A stretch of 59,866 nt of DNA, counting the filler, from Sphacelaria rigidula (lineage: Eukaryota): assembly GCA_964200075.2 (NCBI GenBank). It is 10 parts of 10 records of this genome, joined end to end, with 100 filler letters (N's around TTAATTAATTAA, not from the genome) between each part and the next. Parts side by side here need not be neighbours in the genome. Positions count along the whole stretch, not along the records: positions 17,992 to 23,888 come from CAXNAA020023651.1; 9 more parts are not named here. The stretch is one strand, 5' to 3'. Numbering within the stretch: the stretch's first letter is position 1; each line of letters opens with the position of its first letter. The notes under the pieces were generated by a model. It ran no database searches and was not told where the DNA came from. It saw only the letters and a program-made list of their open reading frames with translations. The position numbers were made by a program, and so were the translations under genes. Positions 3,384 to 59,610 of the stretch are shown piece by piece.

Positions 3384-3951
3384 CTACAAGGAGTACGGAT
3401 GAGGAGGGGGGGGGGGGGGGACAAAGTGAACAAACGAGAATGGGTACAAACGGGAGGGAAAAGCGATGGATTTCATACTTGCGTGGCGGTGGCACGAAAC
3501 AACTAGTTTGCCATTTATGCTCGGAGCATATGCTCGTAGCATCGGTACTGTTCGCATAGCGTAACTTTGTGACTAGCTGCACACATGTCAACCGTTCGTT
3601 CTTGTGCAATATTTATAGTAAAGGCATCGCCAGGCCAGTAGTTTCCACAAAACAACGCAGTACTTCATCATGTACAGGGCATTATTACGCAAAGTCTTGT
3701 CTGCATGTCCACTCGTGTACGTGGTATCGAAGAACAAACAGCAGAGGTCCGCCAAAGCCCGACAGCCAGATTGGGTCATTTGTGCACTTCTTGTAAGTGA
3801 AAATGATGCCAATTCAACAGATGACCCACCCTGGCGGTGGATGAAAGGGCCGACGTAATTTTCAGGGGAAAAAAAGATTACATGGACGAGAAAAATGCGA
3901 AGGGATTTCGTCCCCCCACCTCCCAATCCTCGTTTTTTTCTTCTTTCCCAC

Positions 3952-5838: not shown

Positions 5839-5897
5839 TGTGCTCATGATCATGGATGCCGTAGTCATAAGACCATTGATCTCGCATCCCTACAAAG
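5839..5897 (-). mobile_element. Family A retroposon 3' end (cut by the contig end)
   Basis: Matches the family A terminus and abuts a G-rich run. Confidence 0.8.
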
Positions 5898-5997
5898 NNN
5901 NNNNNNNNNNNNNNNNNNNNNNNNNNNNNNNNNNNNNNNNNTTAATTAATTAANNNNNNNNNNNNNNNNNNNNNNNNNNNNNNNNNNNNNNNNNNNN
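5898..5997. other. Artificial contig spacer N44-TTAATTAATTAA-N44
   Basis: 100-bp spacer with a six-frame-stop 12-mer at 5942-5953; identical spacers recur about every 5996-5997 bp. Confidence 0.98.
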
Positions 5998-8466
5998 GGC
6001 TTTTGTGTTTTGGGGGAAAAGGTTGGTTTTGGCTCCTTATACCTGTAGCGTTTTTGGGGGGGGGGGGGGGGTGCATCGCGGCATCACTTGCTTTCTTTTC
6101 TTTTTTTTCTGTACCGTAGGCAGCACCGTACCCAGGGAGCGTGCCTTCCTTGAGTGCGATGAGCTACCTAGCTTTTTGCTGTACGATTCACTCGCAAGGT
6201 TTTTCTCAGTCTTCGCGTACCCGGAAGTGCGTACTGTAATACCTTACTTGTACCTATTGATGAGAAGTAAAAGCGCATGTGTACACCTCGCACGGCCGTC
6301 CGCAGAACGAGGCAACCACCCCATCCTGCGCTGTACATCGTGTCTGGGGCCACAAAAGCCACAGCGCACCGAAATCCAACGATTTCTCTTGGATGCAATT
6401 GTACCTTTCCCGGGCCGTCCTCGTACTCTCCTTGATTGCAACGCGACTTAACCCACACCAGCACCGAATCGCAACCATGCGCCCCCGTAGAATCGAAACT
6501 TCACCTGCCCATTAATCGTTCGCAAGCACAACGACCAGATTCACCGTGTTTTCGAAATCCGTCTGAATACCCCTGTCCCCATATCAACTACTTGCACCTC
6601 ACAACCCTGTGCAACTTACCCCCAATGACAATGACCCGGACGATCATTTTCTCCTGTCTGTCTCGAGTGGGTGCGGTACCCTGTCTCGGGTAGACCTTCT
6701 CTTGTGTGAGCCTTTCGAAGTTCTATATTTTTTTCAAAGAAGGTCAACACCGTTTTTTTGCCTACCGCGATTTTGAACGGAGAAAAGAAAAAGAAAACAC
6801 ACACTCGTACGGCATAAAATTGGAGTTTCACATGCATGAAGTTTGCGTGACCCAGGAGTTGTGCACCTGCACGACAGTACCCAATGAAAAATAATGACTG
6901 CAGAGCCATCACGTGAATTTTCAAACTTCGTACAGGCAGCACTTTGTTCTCACCCCCAATTCTGTACAGACCGGAACCAGTTTAGTTAGCCGCTTGGCAG
7001 GACGCTATATGGTTGATTTTCAGATCGACTTGATTTTAGTGTGGATAGAGAAATCCGTATCTTTAATGGGCCTATGTTCCAAGCGTGCTCCTCGCGTGTG
7101 CACAACGCGTTTTTGTCGAAATCGGCGCCTTGGACGCCGGGTTGAGGTCTGACAACGTACACTCTGCGTAGGAAGCACTTTGCACCCCCTTGCCCGAGGG
7201 TTCTCGGTGTGCCTTTGTACTGCCGCGCCCTATTTGTTGTGCGGGCGACATAACAGCCAATACACCGTGATCGTGTTTCCAACAACGTGTAGAGAGCAGA
7301 GAGCACCGTGTGCCGACTACAACTTCATGTACCGTCCGGAATACAAGAACAGTACAGTAGTTGATGCAAAATCCCCGGCGCAGGTCAAACCGTCTTCGCA
7401 AGTTTCAAACGCACCCTCCCTCAGTGTCAGCTGCGGCATGGGAATGATGGGTCTGGGCACGGAAGCGAGGCTCGTTCGTTGTGAAAGACACACTACTGTA
7501 TCCATTACAACAAGAACATGATGGTGTTTTCACCAGTGACCAGGCAGCATCGCGTGCCGACCACGATTACTTTATACAGAGCGGAACACAACAACGATAC
7601 AGCAGCCGGGGCAATCCCAACCGAGGCCAAACTAACTGACTCCGTAAGGTCTGACCTCGCCACAGGACAGAGACAGCTACAGCACATGAGAGCGGGCCGT
7701 GAGTGTGTTTAAACTGCAGGAAAGCGAAACATAACATTTCCTATTTTTCTAGTTCCTTGTCTGAATTGAAACGGGTCCTCAAATTTGGCCAGGTGTTCAA
7801 AATCATCACCCAATTATGAACGCTTCGCCAAGATCGAGAGCCCGTTCAAAATTTTGCAGCGGCACTTATGTATCAAATCGTCACGAATTTGTTCCATGAT
7901 GGTGTATTTTTCACCAGCGGTTCAGATTCTCCGAACGTGAGAGTTTAAACGGCTCCCACAACAAGATTTGGTCTTGATTCCTTTTTTTTTTTTTTTCTTG
8001 ATTCGTAACAAGATTTGGTCTTGATTCTGATTACGAGCGAAATCCTTCATAACTCATGTTCCTAATTTTTCATGACAAAAGTACCTCCAAATCATTCCAA
8101 GTTCGCATCGAACTATTTCGTGATATTATTGCAAAACATTAAGACCACATAATTCGAAGTATATATAGATTGAAGAAGGTGAGGATGAGGTCAGGTCTTC
8201 ATAGCAATAGAAACACAGCTTGTTGTCCAACGGCTTGGCTGTTGCAAGTGGTGATGTTTTTTTTTGCTTCTCCAGGTTTTTCTCTTTTTGTCAACACTTA
8301 CCAGGTGCTGTACCTCTCCTTGGAGAAAGGAAAAGGCGTCCTCGTTGTCATCATCGGTTGGTGTCTCATTGTTACCATTCATTGGTGTCAGTCAGCCGAG
8401 AACCAATATTTGTCAAGTCCGGCGCACACCAACGCACGACCTCGTCCGCTCCAAACGTTTGATCAG

Positions 8467-8719: not shown

Positions 8720-9195
8720 TATGTCGTATCATATGATCATATGACCTCGCATCCCTACAAAGCCGGGACGGAGCGCGCAGGGTTTTCGCCAGACCAGACT
8801 CGCAATCACCGAGCGCGAAGCGCCGTGATCTGTTCGGCGAGCTGCATGGAGGGTGAACTGCATCCTGCCAAGATTGATCGGCCCAAAGCGCACAATATTC
8901 TCGCATCTGGATGACAGACTACGATGATTTGCTTCATTTTCTGGTGTCGCCACTTCCAGACACAGTCACGGGTTACACGCGGTCTCGTGGGTATTTCACC
9001 ATTTGAACACTACGTAAATCGATCATCACCATGGCGCGGAATCGAGATTTTCCACTTCGCACAATATGATGTAGCTCGACTACCGTCATGGCTACCGCAA
9101 CAAAAAGAAGGCAAGCGAGTAAAAAACGGTGACCTGGTTGCCTAGCTTACGTAATTGGCGGAGTGTTCTACAGCATCATTGCCAACCGACGGTAA
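8720..9195 (-). mobile_element. Family A non-autonomous retroposon, in the ALDH intron
   Basis: Colinear with copies at 11511, 23989, 32200, 52148 and 58672; G-run at its 3' side. Confidence 0.85.
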
Positions 9196-10286
9196 CCCTC
9201 AAAAAGGTAGGACGGGGGAGGTGGGTGGAGGGGCGATAACTGGGATAATGGATTCGTTGAATTGGAGTGTATTGATAAACCCTCGCAACGGGACTACTCT
9301 GCTACAAGTGCAAGTGCAATCGCAATATAGATGTACCGGAGGGTGGGTGAAAGGAAATCCTTTGCTCGAGAGAACTGGAGTGAAACGGGGACATAGGAGG
9401 GAAAGAACAGAAGAATAATTAGCTAAAGCATTGACAAAGACAAAAGAGGTGTAAGAAGAGATGTAAGAAAGGGGAAGAGAGATGTGCAGAGTGCATACCA
9501 TTCCAGCAATAACATGAACGTATGCCTGTGAAACAATGAGTGTGAATATCTCCTGTAAAATGATTTTTTGGATAACAAGAGGTGCGGAGAAGTTGTATGG
9601 TCCTGCCCGCTTGAAGTTATAGGCCGTAGCCAACGAATATACTATCCTCCGTCGACCGCGGAGTGTAAGCAGAGCGATTGAATAAGCGGCGTAAAGATTA
9701 AAATGCCAAAAAGTGACCAATTAAATACGGTCTCACATGCATGTAACGATTTACGCTCTTCTATTATTTGTACGATATTTCTAACGTGTGGACTGCGATT
9801 TATGATGAGTAGTTCATGCGTGATGTGTCGTTGCTTACACCTCCTGTGTAGGTTGATTTACTTCCGTTACCCCCCCCTTCTTTTCCTAGTTGGTTCTTTT
9901 TCTTTTTTCTGTTTTTCCTTTTATTTTCTTNNNNNNNNNNGATGAGTGGGTACTGTGTGGTTTGTCTTGTTCCCCCCCCCCCTGGTCGGTTGCCGCCCCC
10001 CCCCCCCCCCCCCCTTTTTTTCTAGTTGCGAGTTTGAGCTGTCTCGGACATCCAGGCTTCAAGTGTATGATTGATTTTGTTCGTCTGTTTGTTTGTGTTC
10101 CTATTCACATGTGTGCGTGAAATTCGCTGATGGACAGCCGAGTAGTCAAGATTGTGATGATTTTTTTGTTGTTGCTGTTCTTGCTGTTCTTTTCCTCCGT
10201 CGTTCGCGCCTTGAACGTTATTTTTGACAAATTGGCTGTCCTGTCGTGTGCGTGGACGGGCCTGCCTCGCTGACTCGGACGTGAAG

Positions 10287-11510: not shown

Positions 11511-11894
11511 GATGTACTCATAACCTTGCATTCCGTAGTCATAAGACTATTGACCTCGCACTCCTACAAAGCCGGACGGAGCACGCCGGGTTTTCGCCTA
11601 ACCAGGCTAGCGCTCAATCACCAAGCGCGAAGCGCCGTGATGTGTTCCTCGAGTCGAATGAAGGGTGCGCTGCATTTGCTAAGATTGTTGGGCCCAAAGC
11701 GTACCATAATCTCGCATCTGGATGACAGCCTCGAATGAATTGCCTCATTCTGCGGCATTTCCGCTTCAAGAGAGTCACGGGTTATACTGTCTCATGGGTG
11801 TCTCGCCATACGTATACTTGGTGTACTCATGATCATGCATGCCATAGTCATCAGACCATTGACCTCGCATCCCTACAAAGCCGGGACGGAGCAC
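11511..11894 (-). mobile_element. Two tandem family A fragments (11511-~11805 and ~11820-11894)
   Basis: The TGTACTCAT(A/G)A...GACCTCGCA...CTACAAAGCCGG start occurs twice; G8 run at 11503-11510. Confidence 0.85.
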
Positions 11895-11994
11895 NNNNNN
11901 NNNNNNNNNNNNNNNNNNNNNNNNNNNNNNNNNNNNNNTTAATTAATTAANNNNNNNNNNNNNNNNNNNNNNNNNNNNNNNNNNNNNNNNNNNN
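11895..11994. other. Artificial contig spacer
   Basis: N44-TTAATTAATTAA-N44. Confidence 0.98.
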
Positions 11995-12137
11995 TATGCA
12001 GACGAAGCGGTTCTCCCTTTGTCAAGGCATCGCGTTGTTATTGCCACTCACCACAGCCAAAAAAAAAGAAAATACCCCCCCCCCCCCCCCCCTCCCTCCC
12101 AAGGATTACCCCGACAATCGGCAACCTTCATTCTCAC

Positions 12138-15830: not shown

Positions 15831-17891
15831 GGTTTTGCACTCCGCCCACATTGTCCTTGCCTTCGGATGCGTCTGACGCAGCTATCAGGGGCTATTGTTT
15901 GCCGTCGGGCATGTGGCGGCGGTACGACTTTACCGCTGAGGAACATGATCATTTTGAAGGTCCTACTGTGCACTTGGATGATCATATTTTGATCAATGTA
16001 CCACTGGAACTATCCGGGTACGGTCATGTCGGCGCCGGTAATGTTTCTTCTCTGCAGGAGACGCACACGGTTGTGAGCTTGTTGCGTGAGGTTGTACGGA
16101 GACAACTCGTGCGCCGTAATGTGGGTATGAATAAGCACAGAGGGGGTGGTGAGGAGGCGCGTTCGGGTGCTGTGATGCGCATGCTTGGTCTGCTGACAGT
16201 TGACTCGGGCTGGATGTTGAGACGAAGCATGTTTCGGGAATGTTCGATTATGTGGCTGAAGCAATTTTGCGGTGGCCCATGGATGGTGTTTCCGCCACCC
16301 TCTCGTCCCACCGTCCCGATATTCAATAGCGTATGCAGAACATGAGGACAGAGGGGAGGCATCTGCGTTCAGGCTTCAGGGACTCGGGCTCGTCCGAAAT
16401 GTCATTGGGTGCTCGTCTGGGAAAACGTAGCAGGGATTTTTCGTTTGTCAAGAATGCGTTGATGAGATTGTAGTGTAACCGCGCTGTGATGGGAACATAG
16501 CAACCACTTTGGCGGCCGGTGCTTTCTTGTCGGCGCTGTTGGATGGGGAACGTTCATCCCTTGCGTGGAGCCCGGGTGGCCACGTGTTGTGATTGGGTTT
16601 CTGTGCCCCCTTTTCGTTTTTGACGTGATACACACGGAATATATACTCATCTTGTTTCGTTCTTATCACCCGGTAAACTTGTGCGTAGAAGAAGTGACGC
16701 GGCAATTTATCGGGAAAGGTCGCAGTTGCGTCGGCGTGATCGGGGTACGGCAGATCGGGTAGACGTGCGTCTCCGGGAGCCCGAAGGGATCAATTCCAAC
16801 TCCGTCGTGACGCGTGTTCGTGGGGAATTTCCGGTGACATTTCGAGGCGGGCGCGGAACGGTCGCGCTACAGCAGTGCTAAAGCTCTGGTCAGTTGATGA
16901 ATCGTTCCCAGCGTCACGGTTGATGCCCCGCTAATGACGTACGGTGTCTGGAACAACGCGGGATTTTTGGTATGGATTCAGTGCGATGCGGTGTCTACGT
17001 TGCGGCAAGTGGTGGCGTTGGCTGGGCTAACGCCTGCATAGTTGCGGATTGGTGGCACCACACATTTGTCCGCAGCAGGAGTGGCCATAGGGATGTTGCA
17101 GACAGAGGGTACATGGAAATCGGTCGCGTAGAAGCCATACGTCGGGGATAACGATGTTATTTGCGGTTTGGTGTCAGAAGCTTTCGCCCATCGGTGCGGA
17201 GGCGGGATCTGCAGCCTGGTCAGGGCACGGAACAGAGGGGCGAGTAGAGACCTCATCGGAGGAAAGCGGCTCATGACGTCGAGTTACATGACGGATGTTG
17301 CTGTTGTTGTTGTTGTTGTTGTCTTCACATTGGATGACGGATGCTGCATCAAGATAATGGCGATGAAAGGGATACGGTTACATACGGTAAATGAATGAGT
17401 ACGTGAAGAGTAGTAGTATAGTCATGTGTCAACGAAGAGGATTGGATGCCGAAATTGGAGTCGAGACTAAGTTGTCGGTCACACATGCACGGAAGTGTCG
17501 TACCCCTACGGAATGGATTGCATTAGTGTGGCGGGAGAAAGCGTTGAGGGGGTATGTTGTATCCGCGCGTCGGCTTAGGTTCCTGTGAAAGCTGTTGCGA
17601 CTGCGCTCAGCAGAATCTCCAGATGGGAGCGAACGATCGGGTACGTGAGGAGTCACACTGTTTTTGAACGGGTGAATCATGAGGTTTTCCCTAGCCCCCC
17701 CCCCCCTTCCCCCAAGCTGGGTTGGGGGCGGGAGTGCATAATGTGACAAAATTCGAAAGTAACTGCACAAAACACAAAATGTGTGGCCGCGGAGCCAGAG
17801 AAACCAACGCGCAACCTTTGCGCTACTCAGCGTGCTGGGCATCCGGAGCTGCAGGGGGGGCGGGGGGGGGGGGGGGGCCCATTTTTTGGTT

Positions 17892-17991
17892 NNNNNNNNN
17901 NNNNNNNNNNNNNNNNNNNNNNNNNNNNNNNNNNNTTAATTAATTAANNNNNNNNNNNNNNNNNNNNNNNNNNNNNNNNNNNNNNNNNNNN
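17892..17991. other. Artificial contig spacer
   Basis: N44-TTAATTAATTAA-N44. Confidence 0.98.
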
Positions 17992-19760: not shown

Positions 19761-19964
19761 CTGGTCATTCCGCACAGTTAGAGAAGGAACGAAGGTAGGC
19801 GAAGTGCTCTCCGCAGGGGGGGACACGCCTACTTCATCCGACAGACCTCGAACTGGACACAGTGGCGAATGATCGTGCTCTGTAGATCTTTACCAACGCA
19901 CCCAATCTGATCGCCAGCAAGGAGACCCTTTGCGAGAACAGGTGCAATCGAATCTTAGGGGGGG

Positions 19965-21402
19965 CGTACTCACTTGTTGCTTGCCTTAGTCGTTTGACCA
20001 TTGACCACGCATCCCTTTCGAGATGGAGCACCGTTCCTACTCCTAATAGACACCTTCAACATTCCGGCGCGCATTACGCTTCTTTCATAGCTCATTAGGT
20101 TTCTCCCATGCTCTGCGCAAAAACCTTCTACGTATCTAATACATCAGACGATTCCATGCCACCTTCGTTCACGTCCCGTATTTCCCCCTCTAGCACGTCC
20201 CGTTCCTCCTTGTACAGTTCACATTGCGCTACTTTATGATTTCTGCTCTCGATTGCTTTGCCACAGAGGTACTTCTGCCTATCAACTTCCTCTTCTTTCC
20301 GATTACTGGTATACTTTTCTTTTTTTTTCTTCTGTTCCTCCTTTTTCTCAGAGCGTGTTTCAGTTTCGTTTTTCGTTGGTACGTCTATCATGAGACCACG
20401 GCTGGAGCCCTGGGGGGTCAGTTGAAGTGCGACAAGCAATTCATCAATCAATTAATCTTTCCGGTAGGTCCAGGTCCCCCACGCGAAATCGCAGTTTCAT
20501 ATTTTTTTTCGTCGCGTCCACGGGGCCATGCAGATATGTTTCCATTCCGATGCCCTCTCTCAACCCCCCATATATATCCAGGTGTTCTTTCTCGTCTACC
20601 TTACGTATGAGCGCTCCATTTTTTCCCCTTATTTTTATCATGTTGCTCACTTTTGTCTTGTGCCCCGCGCCTGCATCTAGGGACGGAATTTCGTCTTGGT
20701 TCCCGCTTATCTCCTTCCACACTTTCTCGACTTCTCTATTTCACCTGATGACATCCCCTTTCGTATTTTTCTTCCAAACAGCCTTATCAACGACAGCTGG
20801 CAGTCTCTTTCTCTGCATGTTCAAGCTATATTTCGATCTGAATTTGCTCATGCCTTCTGTTTGAAGTGAGTACGTCTCCAACTCTGCTCTCAAAACTGTA
20901 TTACTCGTCGTTTTCGAGCATCCAAATATCTTCTTGGCTGCTGCTCTCTGTACTGTTTTTAGCTTATTCACCAATTTCACGTTCTACTCCCATACTTCTC
21001 CTGCATATTCCAGCTGTGGTACGATCAAGTTCGTCAGGATACATCTCTCAATCCTGGTGTCCGGGTGCGGGTCTCTGGGGATCACGTTCATCTTTCCTAT
21101 CTGTGTCTTACCCTTTTATATTACCTTGTTAATTTCTGCACCCCAAGAACAGTGTTTTGAGATATCCAGGCCAAGGTATGTATATTGGTCTACAATCGAC
21201 AGTTACTCTCCTCCCCACTTCCACCTGAACCCCAGTCGATTTTTCTCATCCTCGTTACAGACGAGTATCGCGCATAGTTTCACATTCGCTATCACTCTCC
21301 TTCGCTGTTCGCTGTCACTCTCCATTGCCTAGTGTATTCTTGTGCCTTATCTATCTGTTTTTGCAATCCTCCTGCTGTTTCTGAAATCCCCACATAATCA
21401 TT
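19965..21402 (-). mobile_element. 5'-truncated, decayed non-LTR retrotransposon (LINE), RT C-terminal half to 3' end
   Basis: Begins at the RT DD motif: DYVGISETAGGLQKQID...WRVTAN...DQYTYLGLDIS...LEYAGEVW...VQRAAAKKIFGC...LRAEL; stops and frameshifts; 3' end GAGTACG abuts a C7 run. Confidence 0.92.
20315..20457 (+). mobile_element. Family B (AATC-tailed) insertion nested in the LINE
   Basis: Interrupts the LINE frame between GDLDLPER and YTSNRKEEE; homologous to 14415-14553. Confidence 0.75.
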
Positions 21403-21529
21403 GGACCTGAGGGGTAAACGACTGCCGAAACGGTAGGTGAGAGGCGATCTGGGTACGAAATAAAAGTGATACCTGGGAGTCGATGCTGAGGACCTGTCTG
21501 CAGTTCCACAGTAATGATTAGCACTGGAA

Positions 21530-23888: not shown

Positions 23889-23988
23889 NNNNNNNNNNNN
23901 NNNNNNNNNNNNNNNNNNNNNNNNNNNNNNNNTTAATTAATTAANNNNNNNNNNNNNNNNNNNNNNNNNNNNNNNNNNNNNNNNNNNN
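23889..23988. other. Artificial contig spacer
   Basis: N44-TTAATTAATTAA-N44. Confidence 0.98.
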
Positions 23989-24324
23989 AAGATTGTTCGG
24001 CCCGAAGCCTACTGATCATCTTGCATTTGGAGGACAGCCTCCAATGAGTTGCTTCATGTTCTGATATCACCGCTTCTAGAGACAGCCACGTCTTATACAC
24101 TGCCTCATGGGTGTCTCATCATGTAAACACCACGTAGTACGATCATCCCTATTGTGCGGAGTTGAGGTTCCCCCACGCCGCACAACATGACCTAGCTAGA
24201 CTACCATCATGGTTACCGCAAAAAAACGCAAGCGCGCAAAACAAATCGGTAACCTGGTTGCCTAGCTTCCGTAATGAGTGGCGTGTTTAGGGGGGGGTGT
24301 ACTTATGATCATGCATGCCATAGC
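23989..24324 (-). mobile_element. Family A fragment (23989-24287) plus a 27-nt tail-only insertion (24298-24324) with TSD
   Basis: The tail fragment is flanked by the direct repeat CGTGTTTAGGGGGGGG (24282-24297 and 24325-24340). Confidence 0.85.
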
Positions 24325-24349
24325 CGTGTTTAGGGGGGGGGGACACAGA

Positions 24350-29885: not shown

Positions 29886-29985
29886 NNNNNNNNNNNNNNN
29901 NNNNNNNNNNNNNNNNNNNNNNNNNNNNNTTAATTAATTAANNNNNNNNNNNNNNNNNNNNNNNNNNNNNNNNNNNNNNNNNNNN
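29886..29985. other. Artificial contig spacer
   Basis: N44-TTAATTAATTAA-N44. Confidence 0.98.
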
Positions 29986-30285
29986 AAGAACACGTTGAAA
30001 AACAGGGCAATGTTCCCGTCACCGCTACTACTGTACTCTGTCACACACATGCCAGCAAGGGCGGTGCTGCGGCAATAACAGATAGATCCAATTTGAACTT
30101 GAGGGGTGTTATTCATCGTTGATCTGCTCCCACGTCCCCAAGCCGGGCAGGCGAGCAGAACAGCGTGCCACACGCCAGTTGAGGGGGGTTCATGAGAGAT
30201 CAAACACTTGTAGGGACCTCTTTGACATACGGAGTGAAAAAAGATACCTATAGTGGTGACCTAACTGTTGCTAGCGTGGCGCATG
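29986..30285. repeat. Dispersed repeat family D
   Basis: AGAACACGT...CAGGGC.ATGTTCCCGTCACC...GTGA.CTAACTGTTGCT shared with 39970-40350; the upstream part also occurs at 47790-47874. Confidence 0.85.
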
Positions 30286-30772
30286 GAAAATCTGCAGCAC
30301 ACATACGGTGGTCGCGTGGACAGCCCGGTACAGCACGAGTAGCTTCTCATAAGTAATAATTATTCCAATGTCAACGAAGGTCATGGATTATCACAACTTG
30401 AAAGGAGAGACGAGAGTGCTCTACGATCAACCGCATGTCGTTGCATTCGAGACCCACGCCATCAACCGCCGACAGCAAGGGTCTTGTGGCTTTCACGCGA
30501 CGCTGTCGGCAGTACGCCAGGCAAACCAGATCATAGCTACCTCTCGTCTGCGCAGTGGTGGTCACGCTAACAGACTGCACCGATTTCGCAAAACATGTGA
30601 AAGCTGGACAGTTTGATTTTCATGAGCTATATGCACATGATGAAAACGGTTCTGAAAACCTGTTGAGATACGATGCAGCTTTTGAACAAGGGCGAGAAAC
30701 CATCGAAGGGCTACGCCGAGGCAGTTCCTTGGTTGGAGGCTGCTGCATTTGGAGGCTTCCTCTGCGACATCG

Positions 30773-30774
<2 letters not shown>

Positions 30775-30827
<53 letters not shown>
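30775..30827. repeat. (GT)n microsatellite
   Basis: Directly visible. Confidence 0.97.
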
Positions 30828-30834
<7 letters not shown>

Positions 30835-32107
30835 CTTCCCGCGGTGGAAGGTTTCAAGAGGGCATATTTTTTCACGTAAAATGGTTAGGAAAGCATCGGC
30901 AGCCGATCTGACGAGAAATGAAACAAAGCAGAGGATAGCGAGTGCTGTAGGTGTATTTGTATCCCATACCGTGCCGCACCGTACCGTGCCCAAACGCCCG
31001 TTATTATCGACACCGTTGTTTCGGATGTGTCGGAAAACAATTTCTCAGAAGCTTGACGTTTCGGAGAAGTTCAAGCAGTTCTGACTGCAGCACAGCACGT
31101 CGGAGAGGTGCGTAGTGTGTACGCGGTGGCGCTCGCAAGCGTTCGAGAGTCATCAGAAACCTTACCAATGACACCCTGGGCCATGTGGGGGAGTAGAAGG
31201 CGCCGTGGGTCGGCGGGAGTGGTATTCTCAAGCCGGCGAGGACAAGCCAACGACGAAATCATTACTGTGTCAGGGACGAGAGGTCTAACGACAACGCCGA
31301 ACTCGATGAGGACACCACCCTCGGGGCCCTTCGGATATCCCCGAAATTTTGGGCTTTCTCCAAAAACGTGGTTTTAGTAATGCTCCCTCTGTCCCGAGAT
31401 ATAAGCAATGTTTCTACCATATGCCCCAAAGTAGGTGACTCAGTTCTTGTTTTATGTCCGACGTGTATGAGACATGATCAGATTTCGCGTGGATGAATAG
31501 GAAAGAAAAAAAAACTCCACGAGGGAGGGGGTGGGGGTTTGACGTCCGCTGCTTGGTGACGCCATGGAAGAATTCAGATTGTATAGCGCTATGCTTGCTG
31601 CCAGCAAGGAGGGACCGAATCTCCGCCCCCTCTTATAAATCGTCGAGAATCTTACGCTTGGGCCCCTGGGAGGCACTTCCAGCAGCGGACATGCCAAGAG
31701 AAGATGGGGAGGTTTTTGACCGGACGTTCCAAGTAAGGGTGGTTTCGAGCTACGTCTGCTGGGGTAGGAGGACCACTTTTGGTGGTGAAATTGAAAAACA
31801 CCGGTTTGGGGCAAGCCGCGCAAAAGCCGCGAAAGCGAAGAAAAAAGATGTCGATAAGAAAAAAGTGAGCCGAATTTGGACCGCTTTTTCTCCCAACCTT
31901 GTTTATGTTGGTTGGTTGGTGTACTCACGGCATGCATGATCATGATTACACCAACCTTGCTTATACTTGTGGACAGAAGGAGTAACTGGTATAAGAGCCG
32001 AAGTCTGACGTGGTCGTGGCAGTGACTGAATTTCCCCTTGTTGTTCATTTCGTACAAGACGCATGCGTGCGGCCTTGCAGGAACCCCCAATCCCTCCCCT
32101 CTAGCCT

Positions 32108-32131
32108 ATGGCATGCATGATCATGAGTACA
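32108..32131 (+). mobile_element. 24-nt family A tail-only insertion with 11-bp TSD
   Basis: ATGGCATGCATGATCATGAGTACA is flanked by CCCTCTAGCCT at 32097-32107 and 32132-32142. Confidence 0.85.
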
Positions 32132-32199
32132 CCCTCTAGCCTGGTCCAGCAATAACCGGGCGTGCTTCGTCCCGGCTCTGAAGGGACGAACTCCCGATG

Positions 32200-32678
32200 G
32201 GGTTGGTGTCGATCAACAATAATGCTTACCGTAGAACACGCCACTCACTGCGTTAGCTAGGCAACCAGGTTACCAATTGTTGTTGCGCGCTTGCGTTTTT
32301 TTGCGGTAATCATAATGTTGGTCGAGCTAGATCATGTTGCGCGGTGTAGGACAACCTCACCCGCCCGCGAATGATATGGTTGTACTACGTAGTGTTTCGA
32401 TGGTGGGAAACTCATGAGGCAGTGTGTAAGCCGTGGCTGTCTCTGGAAGTGGCGATATAAGGAAATGAAGTAACTCATTGTAGGCTGTCATCCAAATGTA
32501 AGATGATTGGTACGCTTCGGGCCGAACAATCTTGGCAGGATGCAGCTCACCTTTCATGCGACCGGCCGAACACATCACAGCACTTCGCGCTCGGTGATTG
32601 ACAGCAAGCCTCGTCCAGCGAGAACCCGGCGTGCTCCGTCCCTGTTTTGTACGGATGGGAGGGCAATGGCCATATGAC
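32200..32678 (+). mobile_element. Family A copy
   Basis: Reverse complement of 8720-9195 and 58672-59153. Confidence 0.85.
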
Positions 32679-32688
32679 GTGAAATATT

Positions 32689-32780
32689 GGTGTCTCTATT
32701 AGGACTAGGAACGGTTCTCCGTCTCGAAAGAGATGCGTGGTCAATGGTCAAGCGACTATGGCAAGCAACAAAGGAGAACC
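32689..32780 (+). mobile_element. LINE 3'-end fragment followed by a C-rich tract
   Basis: Matches the reverse complement of 19965-20055. Confidence 0.85.
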
Positions 32781-33047
32781 ACCCCCCCACACACACCCCC
32801 CCACCCACCCCCACCGCACCCCACACAAACCAACATCACCCACNNNNNNNNNNGGGAGGGGTTCTCCGCCCGAAAAGGGGTGGGGGGTAAATGGTCAAGC
32901 CACAAGGGAAAAAAAAAAAGGGTCCCCCCCCCCCCCCCCCCCCGGTTCTTAACACGCACATGCTTATTTAGATTCCGTTTCTCATCATTCTCGTACCCCC
33001 ACTTTTGACGCCTTACTTTTTCGCCGACCCGCCATTGCGGCCGTCAG

Positions 33048-34262: not shown

Positions 34263-35264
34263 GTGAGCTTCGAGAGATGAGTAAGGACAAGTCGCCGCCG
34301 CGCCCGGACACCTACGAGGATGGGAAGAGCGTCGGTTAGACTCCCGCCAGAAGCGTCGGGCTGTTGCGAAGAATCTAGTTTTCGCCGTTGAAAGCGTCAC
34401 GGCATGAGTAGACTTGAATTAGTTCACTTGGCTTGATGAGCGAGAAAAGTTCACGCGGTGCGGGAGTGCTTACCCAACCCGCGAGACCAAAATTCAAGGC
34501 GTGTACTGTACCGGGGAGAGATGGAGTGGTTATCCTTTGGTTCCCCGGACTCGTCCCGAGGGGGTGGGGGATTGAAAGTGTGTGAAAAATATACCGCACC
34601 ATCTCGAAACACGACTACAACCGTCAGTGTCTCTCGGGGCAAACTCCCGAAAAGTTTATCATGCAAGTTTTCCTGCAACAACAACCCCCCACCCCATAAA
34701 TGCCAAGACCTACTGAACTCATGAAACAAACACCTTACCGGTGACCGACCACATGACCTACGAGAAGGAGCGCCAAGCGGTACGTAGACTCCTTGACATC
34801 TTGAAGGATAGAAGCTGGTACAAAGTGCGGGGGAATCGTTGGCCAAGCTTTCGGCAGCAAAGGTCTACTTGAAAGCATCAGTGGAGTAGCGACCCATGGT
34901 GAATCGTACACGAAGTGGAGGAGTGATGTACGGGACATCCCGATGTGAGTAAGACCTTGTGTTATGCAAGCCGCCCTTGAACATTATACGGTGAAAATGA
35001 CCACCCTGGAGGAGAGAAACTGGTACACCAGCGGGGCAAGAAGATAGAAAATACGATCGTGAGACGCCTGGACGGTTTACCATAAAGATCGCCTGGCGAA
35101 CACGCGGGATACTTGCGTCAAAGGTGTTGAACTTGGCTTCAGGCTACGAGCCCCGTGTTGGAGGCATGATTCAGTGTCGGTGGGCCAGCAAAAGAACTGA
35201 AAGGAGCCAGACCCCAAACGAGTACTTGGATTGGGATATCCCAGTACGTTGAAGATATCCCACC

Positions 35265-35882
35265 ATGACGAATAAAATGAACAAGCTGGAGATTCTCTCG
35301 AAGGAGATCGAGAGAGAGACGGTAAGGAAGGGTGGATTGAGGAGTAAAGATTAGTCGGGTAAGGTACTAGTAGTGCTGGTATTCGGAGTCCGTAGCGACA
35401 TGACGAGAATGGAGTTTAAAAATAAATGCGATGAAGTTGGGCTACATTGTTTGGCAACAGGAAAAGTAGAGAGGTAGGGAGAACACTTCCGAGTCACGCT
35501 AAAACACGGAGCGAGTAAGGAGTGGGAAATTGTAGAAACAAGTAAGGCATCGGCATGGGTTGGAAGGGTAGGATGGAGAGTATGAATTGCTAATGGATTA
35601 ACAAACCTAAGGCGCAGTGCACGGACAAACGGAGGGAAAGAGAGGCAGGAACAGGTAAGTGGTCGGAAGGGGAAGGAGAGGGGACACAGCGCCCCGAAGC
35701 AAGTAGACAAAGACAAAACCGGCAAGGGGCAGATCAATCAAGCAAGGGAAAGTAGAAGTACGAGACACAGGAAGGGGATAGGGGACAACAAGAGAGAAGA
35801 TAATGATTCGAAAAGGAAGTTGAGAATAGGATCGTGGAACGTGTGTGGATTCGCCACAGACGAGCGCAAACGAGGGGAGATA
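35265..35882 (+). mobile_element. 5' region of a LINE: decayed ORF1-like segment and start of the APE endonuclease
   Basis: Purine-rich coding-like frame with stops, then RKLRIGSWNVCGFATDERKRGEI (APE motif I, xxSWNVxG) running into the contig end. Confidence 0.75.
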
Positions 35883-35982
35883 NNNNNNNNNNNNNNNNNN
35901 NNNNNNNNNNNNNNNNNNNNNNNNNNTTAATTAATTAANNNNNNNNNNNNNNNNNNNNNNNNNNNNNNNNNNNNNNNNNNNN
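35883..35982. other. Artificial contig spacer
   Basis: N44-TTAATTAATTAA-N44. Confidence 0.98.
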
Positions 35983-36560: not shown

Positions 36561-39500
36561 GCTATTATTCCCTCTGACACAAAAGTAAAAGAAGGCTCTT
36601 CCAGATATACCAGAACACCCAACAGTGCCTTTCAGACCATTAACTTATTATTCATGCGCATTCTTCCTTTCGTGGTCGTTGGGGAACTGTTGATTTTGAT
36701 GAACGTTTGAGAACGGTTTCCGGAATAAACTCTCGGCAAGTTGCGAGAGCCACAAGCAGTTGTTTGTATCCTTTCGGGCTGTTGGGTTCTGGGCATACTT
36801 GCCCGTTCCACGTCAGCGTAGGGCAAACACCATTTCGAACAGTTCCAGCGCTCTTCTCACGTTGTCATGAAGAAACTCGTCTCCATCTCTCCGGTTCCCC
36901 CGTTATTTTTGTCCGAATTTTCGCTTGATTCGTGCAAACGTTGAATATGGAACGAACCATGACTTTATTCGTCCGAACCCTGTACCATTCACACTACATA
37001 ATAATGGAAGGCCGACGGCGTAATGTACCACCCAGCAGGGCGACAGCAAATCCCAAGCTCCACTGCACTCACAGGCAAAACCTCCTTTTCCACCCCCCTC
37101 CTACGCAGACTTCCCGTGCCATTAGGTATACCGTAGATGCTAATACGTGGTGTACCATCCAGGGCAAGAGTAAATCCTAAGCTCGGCTGCGTTCACCAGC
37201 GACATCCCCCTCTTTTCCGCTCTCCGACCACGTAGATTCCCCGCGCCCGCCGTATACTACCCAGACCGAAAGTAAATCTCAAGCTAGACTGCCTCGACAA
37301 GCAAGCCCTCCCCCTTATCCGCCCTTCACGAGCAAACCCTCCTCCCTTTCCGCCCTGTCCCTACCCAGATTTTCCCTGCCGCTAGGTGATGTACGTGGTA
37401 TACCACCCAGGGCGTTCGTGGCTCTCATGGCCATCATGCAGGTGATGATTCATGTTCCCAAGGAAAGGTTGATGCCCAGGTGGATCGAGATGTTGTACAT
37501 CTCCGGACGATGCTGAGATCATATTTTTGATATAGACACCGAAACTCAGTGTTGATGTTTGACAATTTTCTGTCTCGATGAGTGCAGACTTGCTTTGCGC
37601 ACTGGTTTGACTCGATTGATGAGCAGAAAATCGTCTGCCGTTTTGTAAGTGTGAGGAGAGCGGGACACCGCGACTTGACTTGACTGTGGAATGGTGTCGG
37701 TAAAATTGCACAGAGTGAAGTGAGTGAAGAGTGTTGAGAACATGTTTTGACATGGATGCCGAAACTCAACGCTGATGTGTAACATTGTTGCCACCCCGAT
37801 GAGCGCAGGACTGTGGTGCACCACACCCTTACTCGATCGGTTGAGATGGAACCTTGTTGGTCGCCTTGGTGAGTACAGGCACGTGGGGCTCCATGATCTG
37901 ACTAGACCAGAGGGTGATGTCGGTAAAACGTTCCGCAGAGGGGTAAGCGGATGAACGATGGTTGAGACCACCAAATTTGAGGTGGGTTCCGAAACTCGAC
38001 ATCTAAGTGAAAAAACTTGTTATCATTCCGGGAGGTGTAGGATTCGCGAGGCATTGGCTTATTGACTGGATTGCTTGGTAAGACTTCGTTGTTATGATAG
38101 GAACAGGGACTGAGTATAGCGCAATACTAGTAGCTTGGCCTGATCATGATAATTTCGGAAGAGTGACTGTGGGCACAAATGAAATTCCTGTGCTACAGGT
38201 CAGCAAAACGCATGTGATCCATATTTGATGGCTAATAGATACAGCTGACGTTATGTGCGAGATGCGGTTTATGTGCACAGCATGATAAAAGAAGAGTGCC
38301 TTGTATCACCCATATGGGAGCTGGTTGTTACTCGGTCGGCTGGCCTGGCGAATTCCACACAGGTTTACACATGTTGGCACGGCATATAAAAAGTCAGAGT
38401 GTACTGTTTCATGCAACCAGGATGCTAGCGGCCGAAATGCCGTTTGATCCATGTGTGGTATATGAGCGAGAAGTGAAGAGTTGAAATAATGGTGCTGGGT
38501 CCGGGTATAATATATGGGTGTGCGTTCGCAACTGCCGTAACGCGACACCACAGTACGGTACGTGGTAAAAGTATGTTCATCGGTTGGTGATTGACGCGCC
38601 TGAGTAACATGGATATTCATACTTTTCCTTTCTGTTGTCCCACTGCCCATTCCCCTCGGGTCTACACGATATGTGAGACGCTGAGCCTCCAAAAACCATT
38701 TTTATCCGACACAGGTGCTGTCTGTAAGGCTGAGACGAGCACGATGTGACGGTTGGTTTTGGAGGACGGTGACCGACCAGGATCAAGATCAGCCCCTCGC
38801 TGCAAATCTCCCCGCAACGTGGGAAGGATGATGAATGCAGCACTCCTTCCCCGTGGCTTAGAAGCGGGGGAGAGGAAGACTTTGATTAGCAAGAATTGGG
38901 GGGGGGGGGGGGGCTAATGCTGATCGTGTGTTATGCCTGAAAGCGTTGAGCTGCTTTGCTCCGCCGGTCACCGAACGGGAATAAGGGGTTAAGTAGATGT
39001 AGTGAGTGTCTAGTTTGGTTTGATGACGTAGGCACTACTGTAGTATGGATTGCTGAATTTGAATTTTGAAATTTGATTCTTGTACTGTAGGCAGCTGACT
39101 GACTGTGGAGTGGATTTTGCAACATGTGATCCGAGTTTCGAAACTTGTCAACTGCACTGTGTTGTGCGGGTTCATATATGTTACCTAGGAGCTTGGTCTC
39201 GCGTGCGTAGTGCAGGTTACTCGAATGCTAAGTACGACCACCCACGCTATTGTAAGGGGTATGGGCTAGTACAGTTGAAGAATTTGACTTGCGTTTCGCT
39301 TGGGTTGACCATCAGGAGCTGCAGTATGGTAAAACACACAGCTCATCCATCCCTGTTTTTTTTGTCTTGGTGTGAAAAGAAATGTACGGATGTATTTGAT
39401 TCTTGGCTGGTCCCATAGTCGTTAAAAGAAGTGACAAGTTGCGGAATTTACTATGGTTTTACGGTTGCTGATGAAATTCATTTCTTGAGAGGATACACCT

Positions 39501-39969: not shown

Positions 39970-40350
39970 GCGCTGACCAACGCAAAGATCGATCCCTCTC
40001 TCCCTCTGTTTTTGGACAAGACGCGCCTCTGTGCGTTGCAGAACACGTCGTCGAGAAGCAGGGCGATGTTCCCGTCACCAATACTGTTATCACACACACA
40101 CACACACACACATGCGAGCAAGCACAGTGTTGCGGCAATAAGATCTAATAATCGCAACTTGGGGGGTGTCGCTGTCATCGTTGGTTTTATCCGACCTCTG
40201 CACCAATTTGTGCACAACAAGGACAAGAGTCTATCATTCCCCAGTTGGGGGGATGTATGAGACACCAAACACTCGTCAAAACCTTCTCGGCAGGCGGAGT
40301 GAGAAAAGGTACCTCTGGTTGTGATCTAACTGTTGCTGGCGTGACCCATA
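39970..40350. repeat. Dispersed repeat family D
   Basis: Colinear with 29986-30285 and 47790-47874. Confidence 0.85.
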
Positions 40351-41191: not shown

Positions 41192-41878
41192 GTATGTTTG
41201 TGTTTCTGTTCGACGACGGTTCCGGTGAGAATATTCCAGGACGTGACGGGGGGGAAAGGGGGTCGTTGAGTTTGAGGGTTGCAAGGTTTGTGGCAATCTT
41301 GTGTTCGGTATTACGGATTATGAAACTAGACTGCGTATTTTAAAATGTCCCCATCAATCGGACGTTGTTCGTCATCTTGTGTCAGAGTGAAAGATCTTTC
41401 GAAGCGTACTGACTGTACTTGTGCAGCCTGCGTTGGAAAGAGTTTTGCCTTGCAATGCTTGTTGCAGAGGGTCTCGCTCCTCTTTGTTGCAGCCATCAGG
41501 GTTTGTGAGCTTGGGATCATAAGTGATTCTCGCTGTTGTCTGTATCATTGGCGCAACTTTTACCGCGATTGCGGGTTGACGTTGCACGTGCCTGTTTTTT
41601 GGTCCGCATCTTCTTTTTTTTTATCGGTCGAACGCCGCAATACCGTGAATGTTCTGTCCTGCTCTCTAATCCATGTACCGTACGAGTACGCAGAGCGACA
41701 CGATTTCAGCCACGGCTGCCCCTAACTCTTCGACTCGCAGCAATACAGTAGTTTTGTTTATGTTCCCGTGAGTGAGCACGGGGGGGGGGGGGGTTAAACC
41801 TTTTCAATGGAGGGGGTCATTATCCAGCGTGGGTTCGCGCAACAGCCCAAAAATATAGGGGGTAAAGTATGCACAATA

Positions 41879-41978
41879 NNNNNNNNNNNNNNNNNNNNNN
41901 NNNNNNNNNNNNNNNNNNNNNNTTAATTAATTAANNNNNNNNNNNNNNNNNNNNNNNNNNNNNNNNNNNNNNNNNNNN
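41879..41978. other. Artificial contig spacer
   Basis: N44-TTAATTAATTAA-N44. Confidence 0.98.
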
Positions 41979-42131
41979 TAATGTATGGGGAAAACGTAGT
42001 GAGCTGCTGAAGGAACGTAATGAGCGCCGGAATGTTGGAGGTGTCTTTGTTAGGAGTAGAAACGGTGCTCCGTCTCGAAAAATATGCGTGGTCAATGGTC
42101 AAACGATCGAGGCAAGCAACAAACGAGTACG
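41979..42131 (+). mobile_element. LINE 3'-end fragment followed by a C7 run
   Basis: Matches the reverse complement of 19965-20110; ends GAGTACG|CCCCCCC. Confidence 0.88.
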
Positions 42132-42489
42132 CCCCCCCTCCTACCCCCCTGAGAGGTCCAAATTAAAAGTGGGACATGGGTGCGCGTTTTTGTTTTTTCG
42201 TGCACCGTTGGAGATGTCATTTGTTTTACTGCTTGGTATCGACTTTTTTCCCCTCCCGCTTTACCGCACTTCGTGAAAAAACAGTTTTTGTCGGGTCCAT
42301 TTATGGGCGCGTCTACATCGCGATGCCCGGGGGACATGTGATTTCGGAATCAACTACACATCGTGGTTTTGAGACCCCTGTCTGAGCGCTGATTCTAACC
42401 ACCGCCCCTCCTCCATATCCCGAATTGACTTTCTCATGTTCGTTGCCGCCGGCCGTCTCTACCTTGTCCACTGTTTATTTCGGTCGCAG

Positions 42490-47874: not shown

Positions 47875-47974
47875 NNNNNNNNNNNNNNNNNNNNNNNNNN
47901 NNNNNNNNNNNNNNNNNNTTAATTAATTAANNNNNNNNNNNNNNNNNNNNNNNNNNNNNNNNNNNNNNNNNNNN
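47875..47974. other. Artificial contig spacer
   Basis: N44-TTAATTAATTAA-N44. Confidence 0.98.
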
Positions 47975-50490: not shown

Positions 50491-52147
50491 GGGGAATAAA
50501 TATTTGGAATCCAATCTGAACCAGCTCGTAACGAGTATGCTTGGTGGAGGAAACTCGGGAGAGGGGAAGAAAAAAGCAAGGAACAGAGAAGAAACAGCGC
50601 AGTACAAGCAAAAGACAACAAACGGCGAAAAAGTGACAGAACGGGGAAGGGGAGGAAAATACTAAATATGGAAGATGCACTGTTTGTAGGATGAAAAAAC
50701 GCGCGCCCCTACAGTACTGTGTTACGTACCTGCTGCACTTAGCACTGATTATGCGTGGTGGTGGTCACACTGCAAGGCATGTACCCGCTAGAACTACGGA
50801 TTACAACATATCATGAGTTTTGCGCAGTGCTATTGTAACACTTCGAAACCTGGAACCACCCTCAAAGGGCGAGCGTTGAGGCTCAATGCGCGTGGTGGCC
50901 CAATTTTGCGGTGGCGGCCCTCTAGAAATCTCTCATACATTGATCGTGAATATAAGACATGCGCAGATCGTACGTACATTTGACTTGATACATATATTTC
51001 GAAGTACGTGTCAATATTGATGACCCGGATGGAAGAACCAGTCAACGTGTACTACCCTTGTGCTGGTGACTGCATAAAGCGGTGCTCACAAGAAGAACTG
51101 TGAACTGATTCACAAGTACGAAGTCGACCGGTGCACAACAAGTGCAGTGATGTACTTGACAACACTACTGTGTCTGGCGATTGGACCGACGCCGTTGTGT
51201 CAACTGTTCGGGCGTGCGCTTTAATCGTGTCCGTTCGACGACACATGAAACACAGAACACAGAGCAGGTACAGACAGTGTAGTACACGTATCAAATAACA
51301 TATCTCCTACCCCAGCGACCGACGCGGGTATCTTCCGATCACTTTTTGCCCGGTGAATCAAGAACTGCACGGCGATACTAAACCTAGTACGATTGCTTCT
51401 GTGTCATGAAGTGAATCAACCCGCATTTGGATGAGGATCGGCCGGCACCTGCTTCGACTTCCCGAGAACTACTCTATGCTCTGCCTCCACTTGAATATCC
51501 TCTTGTGAAACGCTGTGTAAGATTTACGTTCCCCGCGGAAGAAGGATCCCGCAGACAGCAAACTCTTCTCAAATTCTGAAAACACTTGGTTGTAGTGTGA
51601 ACCATCATATTTGGATCCGTTCAAAACTCACAGTGCCAAGGGCATGCCCCGCGTGCTCAGCACACTTTTTGGCTCTTACACAGGGCGATTTCAGCTTCGC
51701 CAATGCACATTTTCCTCTGCACACTGCGTGTATCACCCTTGCCCGTGGGTTCCCGGGCTAAGTTAGTTTTGGGTTTGGATTAGGAGTAGCCTCATGTGTT
51801 AACAAGGACAAATTATGTCGAACTGTGGGTTCAGGAAGCCGAGTTGTGTAGGACCCCCCCCCCCTCCCCCTCTAAAAAGTAGTGTAAATAAGTCCAAAAT
51901 GGATGTGTTTCCATAACTTGCTCAAGGCACTGAAATTGCCACTTTTGTTGTTCCCTCTCTCTCGAGCGTGCCCTCCTGTTTGTACCACTTTGGTCGCGAG
52001 GCGTGTCGTTTCTAGCGAGCGCCTCCTTGTCAAAGTTGCCGTACTTGCGTGCTTCGAAGGGGGTTCAAACCAGGTATCCTGCTCCAGTCCGGGGACGGGG
52101 GAAGTATGCATACTTTCTACAGTTTTCATTCTAATATACTTGTTCAA

Positions 52148-52362
52148 GCCGTGACTGTCTCTGGAAATGGCAATACCAGAAAATGAACCAACTCACTGGA
52201 GGCTGTCATCCGATTGCAAAATAATCAGTACGCTTCGGGCCGAACGCGCCCGGTGATTGACCGCGAGCCTGGTTCGGCGAAAACCCGGCGTGCTCCGTCC
52301 CGGCTTTGTAGGGATGCGAGGTCAAAAGTCACATTACTATGGCATGCAAGATCATGAATCTA
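52148..52362 (+). mobile_element. Family A copy with an internal deletion, ending at a C-run
   Basis: Matches 32430-32678; ends GATCATGAATCTA|CCCCCGCCC. Confidence 0.85.
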
Positions 52363-52847: not shown

Positions 52848-52912
52848 CCTCCGTCTCGAAAGATGTGCGTGGTCAAGGGTTGAACAACTAAGGCAGGCAA
52901 CAAATGAGGACG
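52848..52912 (+). mobile_element. LINE 3'-end fragment between C-rich tracts
   Basis: CTCCGTCTCGAAAG...GCGTGGTCAA...CTAAGGCA.GCAACAAATGAGGACG|CCC. Confidence 0.75.
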
Positions 52913-53870: not shown

Positions 53871-53970
53871 NNNNNNNNNNNNNNNNNNNNNNNNNNNNNN
53901 NNNNNNNNNNNNNNTTAATTAATTAANNNNNNNNNNNNNNNNNNNNNNNNNNNNNNNNNNNNNNNNNNNN
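53871..53970. other. Artificial contig spacer
   Basis: N44-TTAATTAATTAA-N44. Confidence 0.98.
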
Positions 53971-58671: not shown

Positions 58672-59153
58672 TATGCTCACGATCTTGCACTCCGTAGTCG
58701 TAAGAACGTTGATCTTGCATCAAAGCCGGGGTGGAGCACGCCGGGTTTTTGCCGGGCCAGGCTCGCAATCACAAGCACGAAGCATTGTGATGTGTTTGGC
58801 GAGTCGCATGGCGGGTGAGCTGCATCCTGCCAACATAGTTCCGCCCGAAGCGTACTGATTACCTTGCATATGGACGGCAGCCTACAATTTATTGTTCTAT
58901 TTTGTGGTATCTCCCCTTAAGCATGAATGCTGTCACCATGTTAAAATAACGTACTGTAGTACGAGCATCCCCTTCGCGCGGAGTTGGGATCCTCCACCCC
59001 GCACAATATGATCTAGCTCGACCACCATCATGGTTACCGCAAAAAATACTCGCGAAAAAAACGGTAACGTGGTTGCCTAGCTCACGTAGTGAGGGGCATG
59101 TCTTTCTATACAGCGTAATTGCCAACCGATGCCAAATCCGCGGAAATAAGCCT
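58672..59153 (-). mobile_element. Most complete family A copy (~480 bp) with a probable TSD
   Basis: Flanked by TGGATTGGGGAGGGGG (58656-58671) and TGGATGGGGGGGGGGG (59154-59169). Confidence 0.85.
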
Positions 59154-59610
59154 TGGATGGGGGGGGGGGGCAATATCGCGGCATTGTCCCCCCTCGTCCA
59201 GTATATTGGTATAGTGTCTACGTTTGAAGTCGCAGTTGCTCTTTAGAGCATGTTCAAGTAGCCTCGTGGACAGCAACATGTAGACGAAAGACCGCTTGCG
59301 GTGATTTGTGGGGGGACATTGCACCAACCAGAGCTATCATTGTGGTCACTCCAACCCCCATCAGGCCTGTCACCCTAACAAGAAATTTCCTGGCAATACG
59401 TTCGGCTGATTGATTCAGGGAGCATTATTTGATGATCGTGCAACCCGCACGCCCTCCCTCAAGGACACATAATTGCCATCACGATAACCCCGATAACATG
59501 GCCGTGAATGTCAATTGTCGGTCATGATTGACTGGCATAAAACTATTTATCGATTGCTATTGCAAGCAACAATGTAGATACAGCACAACGGATACCATGC
59601 ATCACGGCGC

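Follow-up and report, generated by a model that had tools for sequence, protein, structure and literature searches.

The window, by which we mean the whole stretch of 59,866 nucleotides of Sphacelaria rigidula DNA that was analyzed, comprises ten separate pieces of ~5.9 kb joined by nine identical 100-base linkers. Because the pieces are joined in this way, adjacency across linkers has no meaning. The spacing of the linkers places the four LINE 3′ ends in the window on four separate pieces and reveals that several elements are cut by a linker. The 3′ ends (19965−, 32780+, 42131+, and 52912+) lie where the initial annotation had located them. Table 1 lists the positions of these and other features.

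The LINE copy that ends at 19965 on the minus strand aligns with residues 916–1360 of P0002, a full-length relative, over 21405–19973 (−) in a tblastn search. Its reading frame contains four internal in-frame stops within 20444–21292 (−), besides the frame's own stop. The ORF terminates with the peptide ...KASNK and a TGA that is followed by the five bases GTACG and then by C7, which positions the stop 5 nt before the terminus. The initial annotation had assigned the span 19951..21414 to the element. A LINE is present in this span, but LINE homology starts at ~21405 rather than 21414, and the last nine bases (21406–21414, CCCCTCAGG) are better read as a putative 5′ copy of a target-site duplication (TSD).

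The tail of the 19965(−) copy was matched by blastn to 32692–32787(+), 41985–42139(+), and 52849–52915(+). GAGTACG followed by C7 forms the end of both 19965(−) and 42131(+). The terminus of 52912(+) reads GAGGACG and is followed by CCCACTCCCCC, while that of 32780(+) is decayed and is followed by C7 and further C-rich sequence. Together with a fragment that encodes residues 1–187 on another piece, the window covers residues 1–187 and 916–1360 of P0002. About 620 nt upstream of the ORF start at 35322, GCAACAACAA is followed by CCCCCCACCCC (34675–34700, +), an arrangement that may combine a C-run with an RTE end of the (CAA)n type; the 5′ junction of the full-length LINE could also lie here. 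Beyond the 10-N gap, a second, indistinct version of the LINE tail with A11 and C20 runs occupies 32854–32943 (+); it may be a duplicate of 32717–32802 generated by assembly or homopolymer errors.

Table 1 Features of the window and their positions.
Feature	Position	Strand	Remarks
Linker	5898-5997, 11895-11994, 17892-17991, 23889-23988, 29886-29985, 35883-35982, 41879-41978, 47875-47974, 53871-53970		44 N, TTAATTAATTAA, 44 N; six-frame-stop spacer; spacing 5,996-5,997 bases
Long C or G homopolymers	599-609, 3406-3420, 6056-6071, 9972-10014, 12075-12092, 17695-17706, 17862-17877, 38898-38913, 41780-41793, 51854-51864, 54065-54087		
Family A tail	5839..5897	-	Linker-cut, then CCCCCACCCC
Family A copy	8720..9215	-	Both flanks C-rich (5′ ..CCACCTCCC, 3′ CCTCCCCCC)
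Two family A copies in tandem	11513..11894	-	Upstream tail 11822-11894 linker-cut, CC, 5′-truncated copy 11513-11809 ending T+C8
Candidate 3′ TSD copy of LINE 19965(-)	19953-19961	-	CCCCTAAGA
C7 run directly after LINE terminus	19958..19964	-	Start of candidate 3′ TSD copy
LINE copy	19965..21405	-	5′-truncated, decayed; RT C-terminal half to ORF end; tblastn with P0002
Conserved 3′ terminal ~72 nt	19965..20036	-	Block-wise common to family A; overlaps last ~22 ORF codons; alignment of 14 tails
Candidate 5′ TSD copy of LINE 19965(-)	21406..21414	-	CCCCTCAGG; 7/9 identical to CCCCTAAGA; boundary from tblastn
Family A copy	23989..24289	-	5′-truncated, linker-cut on 3′ side; first 7 nt within TSD of 28-nt insertion
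28-nt family A tail-only insertion	24298..24325	-	Flanks C10+TAAACAC (24326-24342) and C8+TAAACAC (24283-24297)
25-nt family A tail-only insertion	32107..32131	+	Perfect 10-nt duplication CCCTCTAGCC at 32097-32106 and 32132-32141
LINE 3′ tail	32686..32780	+	Joined to end of family A copy 32137-32678; then C7, C-rich up to 10-N gap
5′ part of LINE ORF	35322..35882	+	P0002 residues 1-187, 63% identity; linker-cut at 35883; tblastn
LINE 3′ tail	41979..42131	+	Upstream side linker-cut; then C7
Family A copy, rearranged	52146..52362	+	3′ flank CCCCCGCCC; 5′ flank without C-run
LINE tail-only copy (~64-72 nt)	52849..52912	+	5′ flank ends ..TTCCCC, 3′ flank CCCACTCCCCC
Family A copy	58672..59158	-	C12 in 5′ flank (59159-59170), CCCCCTCCCC in 3′ flank

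P0001, the C-terminal part of the reverse transcriptase (RT) encoded by 20444–21292 (−), is 57–61% identical to five proteins (P0002–P0006) from Ectocarpus and marine contigs, which point to a brown alga or a near relative as host. One of these proteins is from Ectocarpus sp. CCAP 1310/34; the Ectocarpus protein shares 57% identity and the same end peptide with the window copy. Two of the relatives, P0002 (1,360 amino acids) and P0005 (1,328 amino acids), are full-length and contain Exo_endo_phos followed by RVT_1, both above Pfam cut-offs. The domains (PF03372, approximately residues 142–392; PF00078, approximately residues 710–989) define a single ORF in which an APE-type endonuclease lies N-terminal to the RT, and the C-terminal peptide ...KASNK-stop is common to the window copy and the full-length relatives. 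Among solved structures, the best matches of the RT were L1 ORF2p, which ranked first, and R2 proteins. Comparison of the APE region of P0002 with the PDB yielded no significant sequence match (best E values of 0.028 and 0.06). More distant APE- and RT-containing relatives (P0012, P0013, P0018, P0032, and P0035) are 41–49% identical in the RT region, and close to their C-termini they retain a peptide resembling ...CV(V/A)(N/D/Y)G or (V/A)NG. The peptide is a hint that conservation of the DNA box GGTCAATGG, part of the terminal element, may reach well past the close family.

The window also contains a repeat of ~480–560 nt, designated family A, which self-comparison revealed in at least eight places. 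Blocks of similarity to the LINE tail occur within the last ~60 nt of family A: GCTCCGTC, GGGATGCG-GGTCAATGGTC, ACGACTA-GGCA-GCA, and TGAGTAC. Across this region, the decayed family A copies match the LINE tail at 34–43 of 61–64 positions, which is below the 83% given for Ectocarpus consensus sequences. The terminal ~72 nt of the LINE, with which these blocks are shared, are conserved at the DNA level and are presumed to be the element that the RT recognizes. In the 5′ head of family A, the 3′ hairpin region of the same repeat recurs in a second, diverged form (32137–32200, +; 9170–9215, −; 59120–59158, −), and family A may be of dimeric origin. At 31920–31957 (+), the family A terminus is present as a 9-nt inverted copy that directly adjoins a 22-nt tail fragment in direct orientation, and CCAACC begins the outward flank on either side. 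Judging from this single case, the two target strands may each have primed on the tail to yield a head-to-head product, in a manner resembling twin priming.

A sensitive search with six tail queries identified 13 element 3′ ends in the window, four from the LINE and nine from family A. Ten of the 13 are followed directly by an 8-mer with at least six C, compared with a background of 1,262 of 117,812 8-mers (1.07%; binomial p = 5.5e-18). The three exceptions are 11822(−), which is followed by CC and then by a 5′-truncated family A copy; 31951(+), which is followed by CAACCTTG or CCAACC depending on the choice of terminus; and 32131(+), which is followed by CCCTCTAGCC, itself a perfect TSD. We extended the comparison to related LINE ends in other public contigs, all six of which end in ...TACG followed by 8–13 C (L001–L005 and L058). 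When the last 410 residues of P0002 were searched against metagenome contigs, five loci of 51–98% identity were recovered, and in all of them TGA(G/C)TACG is followed by 8–11 C; two of these, L003 and L004, are 97–98% identical to P0002, and the C-run of L003 is broken by a T. An exact 18-nt tail pattern occurred at 70 loci in prokaryote genome contigs, where one match was a real tail (L058, C13) and 69 were chance matches, and once in viral contigs, again by chance. Poly(A) followed none of the 19 tails (13 from the window and six from other public contigs). These results indicate that the association between terminus and C-run is real and extends beyond this assembly. They bear out the initial annotation in two respects: a GAGTAC(A/G)-like terminus directly precedes the C-run in 10/13 window tails and 6/6 external ones, and none of these tails ends in poly(A).

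The initial annotation had further proposed that the C-run marks the start of the TSD. This relationship is clean at two junctions (24298− and 32131+), plausible at four (LINEs 19965− and 52912+ and family A copies 8720− and 58672−), and absent at one (52146); apart from the two clean cases, the duplications are short, mismatched, or made up of C alone. The C-run of each clean TSD occupies the distal (upstream, 5′) edge of the duplication, which implies that the target already contained the C-run when insertion took place. As a source of the upstream C-runs, non-templated addition at the 5′ junction was considered and rejected, inasmuch as the C-run of both clean TSDs is distal and not next to the element. 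Each tail-only insertion lies in the C-run that immediately precedes a resident family A copy, and the first 4–7 nt of that copy are taken into the duplication. Together with the tandem pair at 11513–11894, these insertions are as expected if the C-runs that flank existing copies are preferred targets.

Could the C-run instead be a true tail of the element, similar to poly(A) or to the (CAA)n of neighboring RTE families, and made or extended by slippage of the RT or carried by the RNA? Under this explanation, the chief alternative, the endonuclease would have no preference for G-runs, and C-rich TSDs would arise only because priming on the tail is restricted to nicks that expose G residues; it differs from the reading favored below only in the step that provides selectivity. 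Several observations fit a true tail: RTEX-1 of Ectocarpus is annotated with "(C)n 3′" in the supplementary library (PMC12477816), run length varies from 3 to 13, and the intact-looking ends L003, L004, and L058 bear up to 11–13 C (interrupted by a T in L003). Where runs on both sides of an insertion can be read, however, the 3′ run does not exceed the 5′ run (C8 versus C10, CCC versus CCCC, and C5TC4 versus C12 on the 3′ and 5′ sides, respectively). The similar lengths indicate that a separate long tail beyond what the target supplies is not seen, which argues mildly against a separate tail. We consider a true tail unlikely as the explanation of the C-run.

The window contains 15 C/G runs of at least 10 nt in ~59 kb, the longest reaching 20 nt, and 12 of the 15 are not beside a recognizable element. 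It may thus be that long C-runs characterize this genome generally and were not produced by the elements, and their prevalence lends some weight to the notion that the association with element ends arises incidentally, by chance or regional bias, in brown-alga genomes rich in C/G homopolymers. Against this stand the precise placement of the run, which begins exactly at the base after the terminus (10/13 versus 1.07% expected, and 6/6 in external contigs), and the TSDs that start with it; an incidental association is very improbable. The isolated long runs could have been left behind by insertions that have since decayed, or they could be a genome-wide characteristic that supplies targets.

Contigs from four Logan runs (two studies) were placed on 29986–32843 at 88% likeness; some of these runs (X2–X4) may derive from the window's own sample. 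Across family A and the LINE tail, summed depth reached ~10^5–10^6, compared with tens over unique sequence. In each run, 325–416 contigs had a loose end before place 32413, where the consensus consisted of a long C-run followed by family A (agreement 0.52–0.56). This is suggestive only as a genome-wide sign of junctions between C-runs and family A. None of the contigs of the four runs over 29986–32843 skipped either tail-only insertion to reveal an empty site, a result that carries no weight. Many contig joints connect 32132–32136 to places such as 32717; their sides measure 20–29 letters and lie inside repeats. Sequencing or assembly errors in homopolymers, which the poorly resolved second LINE tail beside the 10-N gap might suggest, are a barely credible source of the C-runs given that the same terminus and C-run occur in six contigs of other assemblies and that the long C-run emerges as the loose-end consensus in four Logan runs from two studies.

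Several known systems provide points of comparison. Mammalian LINE-1 nicks its target in a T-run and primes on its poly(A) tail. The window element resembles LINE-1 in combining an APE-type endonuclease with an RT, in having a TSD that starts with the homopolymer following the element's 3′ end, and in the proposed annealing of primer to template. It differs in that the homopolymer is C rather than A and in lacking polyadenylation, ORF1, and a 3′ UTR; neither the poly(A) tail nor the A-rich TSD start that characterizes L1-type elements is found. Moreover, a conserved 3′ end shared with a partner suggests that, in contrast to LINE-1, the element recognizes its template stringently rather than through a tail only. 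Pairs of LINEs and SINEs with a shared 3′ end are known, as are microsatellite-targeting LINEs that insert at simple repeats. The window elements are similar to these in that the partner copies the terminal sequence of the LINE and insertion occurs at a simple repeat, but they target mononucleotide runs dispersed through the genome, and neither multicopy genes nor arrays of di- or trinucleotides. Members of the RTE clade, including Bov-B, have a single ORF, a very short 3′ UTR, no poly(A), and short simple-sequence ends. The window element shares with RTE-1_Ec32, RTE-2_Ec32, and Bov-B the single ORF, the very short 3′ UTR, the absence of poly(A), and the simple-sequence end. RTE-1_Ec32 and RTE-2_Ec32 end in (CAA)n and are listed with no TSD preference noted, whereas the window element ends in a homopolymer that is also its target (PMC12477816).

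The closest counterparts appear in supplementary file 1 of the Ectocarpus transposable element library (PMC12477816). In this file, RTEX-1 is described as "single EN-RT ORF; (C)n 3′" and RTEX-2 as "(C)n termini/TSD", and the TSD is given as "C-rich" for all RTEX and RTEX-N families (RTEX-1, RTEX-2, RTEX-N1, and RTEX-N2); the other listed Ectocarpus LINE families end in (CAA)n or (CA)n (PMC12477816). RTEX-N1 is a non-autonomous element of 607 bp with the notes "60 bp 3′ end 83% RTEX-1/RTEX-2" and "can be present in tandem"; the head of the non-autonomous partner is noted as having no identified pol III origin (PMC12477816). The hallmarks of RTEX-1/2_Ec32 and RTEX-N1/N2_Ec32 recur in the window: one APE-RT ORF (deduced through relatives), a (C)n 3′ end with C-rich TSDs, an abundant partner (~600 bp in Ectocarpus) that shares the last ~60 nt, and tandem copies. 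The two sets differ in host species (protein identity is only ~60%) and in that the window copies are old and broken; the correspondence to a particular RTEX family is indirect, through annotation. We conclude, indirectly from protein similarity to the Ectocarpus copies and from the sharing of every annotated hallmark, that the LINE is probably an RTE-X-type element like RTEX-1 and RTEX-2; the RTE-X label itself derives from the paper's blastp notes for the Ectocarpus relatives (to RTEX-4_NV and RTEX-1_BF).

The C-run habit is thus recorded for the Ectocarpus RTEX families as annotation notes and is not analyzed in the main text, from which the terms "C-rich", "homopolymer", and "insertion preference" are absent (PMC12477816). 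The initial annotation had known of no poly(C)-targeting LINE. The RTEX notes contradict this in a limited way, and the claim of an undescribed kind of LINE therefore fails (PMC12477816). Targeting of homopolymer C is rare among described LINEs and, in the literature searched, is represented only by a curator's note in one supplementary table (PMC12477816). A search of the full-text literature, whose coverage leaves out subscription journals and Repbase Reports, retrieved no further description of C-run-targeting LINEs. What is added here is the extension of the C-run habit to another species and, at the level of individual junctions, evidence that the C-run is part of the target.

Considered as a whole, we read the locus as an old, 5′-truncated brown-alga LINE of the RTE-X type amid copies of its partner, family A, in which the target C-run forms the start of the TSD and insertion would proceed through a nick in a G-run and priming by annealing to C residues. 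We assign this reading a probability of roughly 0.72; within it, family A is the counterpart of RTEX-N1/N2.

A model for insertion can be envisioned as follows. On the opposite strand, first-strand cleavage would fall at the G-run or just within it and release a 3′ end (...GGG), which would pair with C residues located beyond the terminus in the RNA template. These residues would derive most simply from read-through transcription into the 3′ C-run of the source copy. The RT, bound to the conserved terminal element, would then begin copying at ...GAGTAC(A/G). Each insertion would duplicate the C-run and thereby place a new target on both sides of every copy, which would account for the tail-only insertions in resident 5′ C-runs and for the tandem copies.

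On balance, we lean toward this G/C mirror image of L1 priming, which fits every junction seen with either endonuclease preference or primer-annealing selection as the source of specificity. The same mirror had been drawn in the initial annotation; the lack of poly(A), the fixed terminus, and the sense-strand C-run at the TSD start are supported by the sequence, and the nicking and priming steps are ones that we infer. If the mechanism operates as outlined, these very abundant elements of brown algae would provide a natural mirror of L1 in which to apportion site choice between endonuclease and annealing. The LINE and family A elements may also explain a peculiarity in the composition of brown-alga genomes, namely their many long C/G runs.

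It is tempting to speculate further that the element has no tail of its own, that its primer-binding site is read-through of its own 3′ target duplication, and that its endonuclease is truly selective for G-runs, such that insertion would be self-seeding and every event would double the target. We regard this as possible, if rather doubtful. Such a self-seeding cycle, if it exists, would explain why copies occur in tandem or nested and why brown-alga genomes hold long C/G homopolymers in excess. It would also supply a G/C analogue of L1, a system in which experiments could tell endonuclease choice from primer annealing.

When the terminal region was folded, a hairpin of 5–9 bp was predicted at one common position in the LINE copy (19955–20036), L005, and two family A tails, but not in the minimum-energy structure of L002. 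Across the five tails, single-sequence folding energies did not surpass those of shuffles (z scores of −0.73 to +0.70), and recognition of a stem-loop is therefore only a suggestion. Differences between the LINE and family A tails within the hairpin consist of one-sided changes only, as read by eye in a region where the MAFFT alignment is out of register. Finally, the window harbors another very high-copy repeat that is unrelated to the LINE tail (29986–30657, +, and 40040–40349), over which summed contig depth in the four runs reached ~10^5–10^6.
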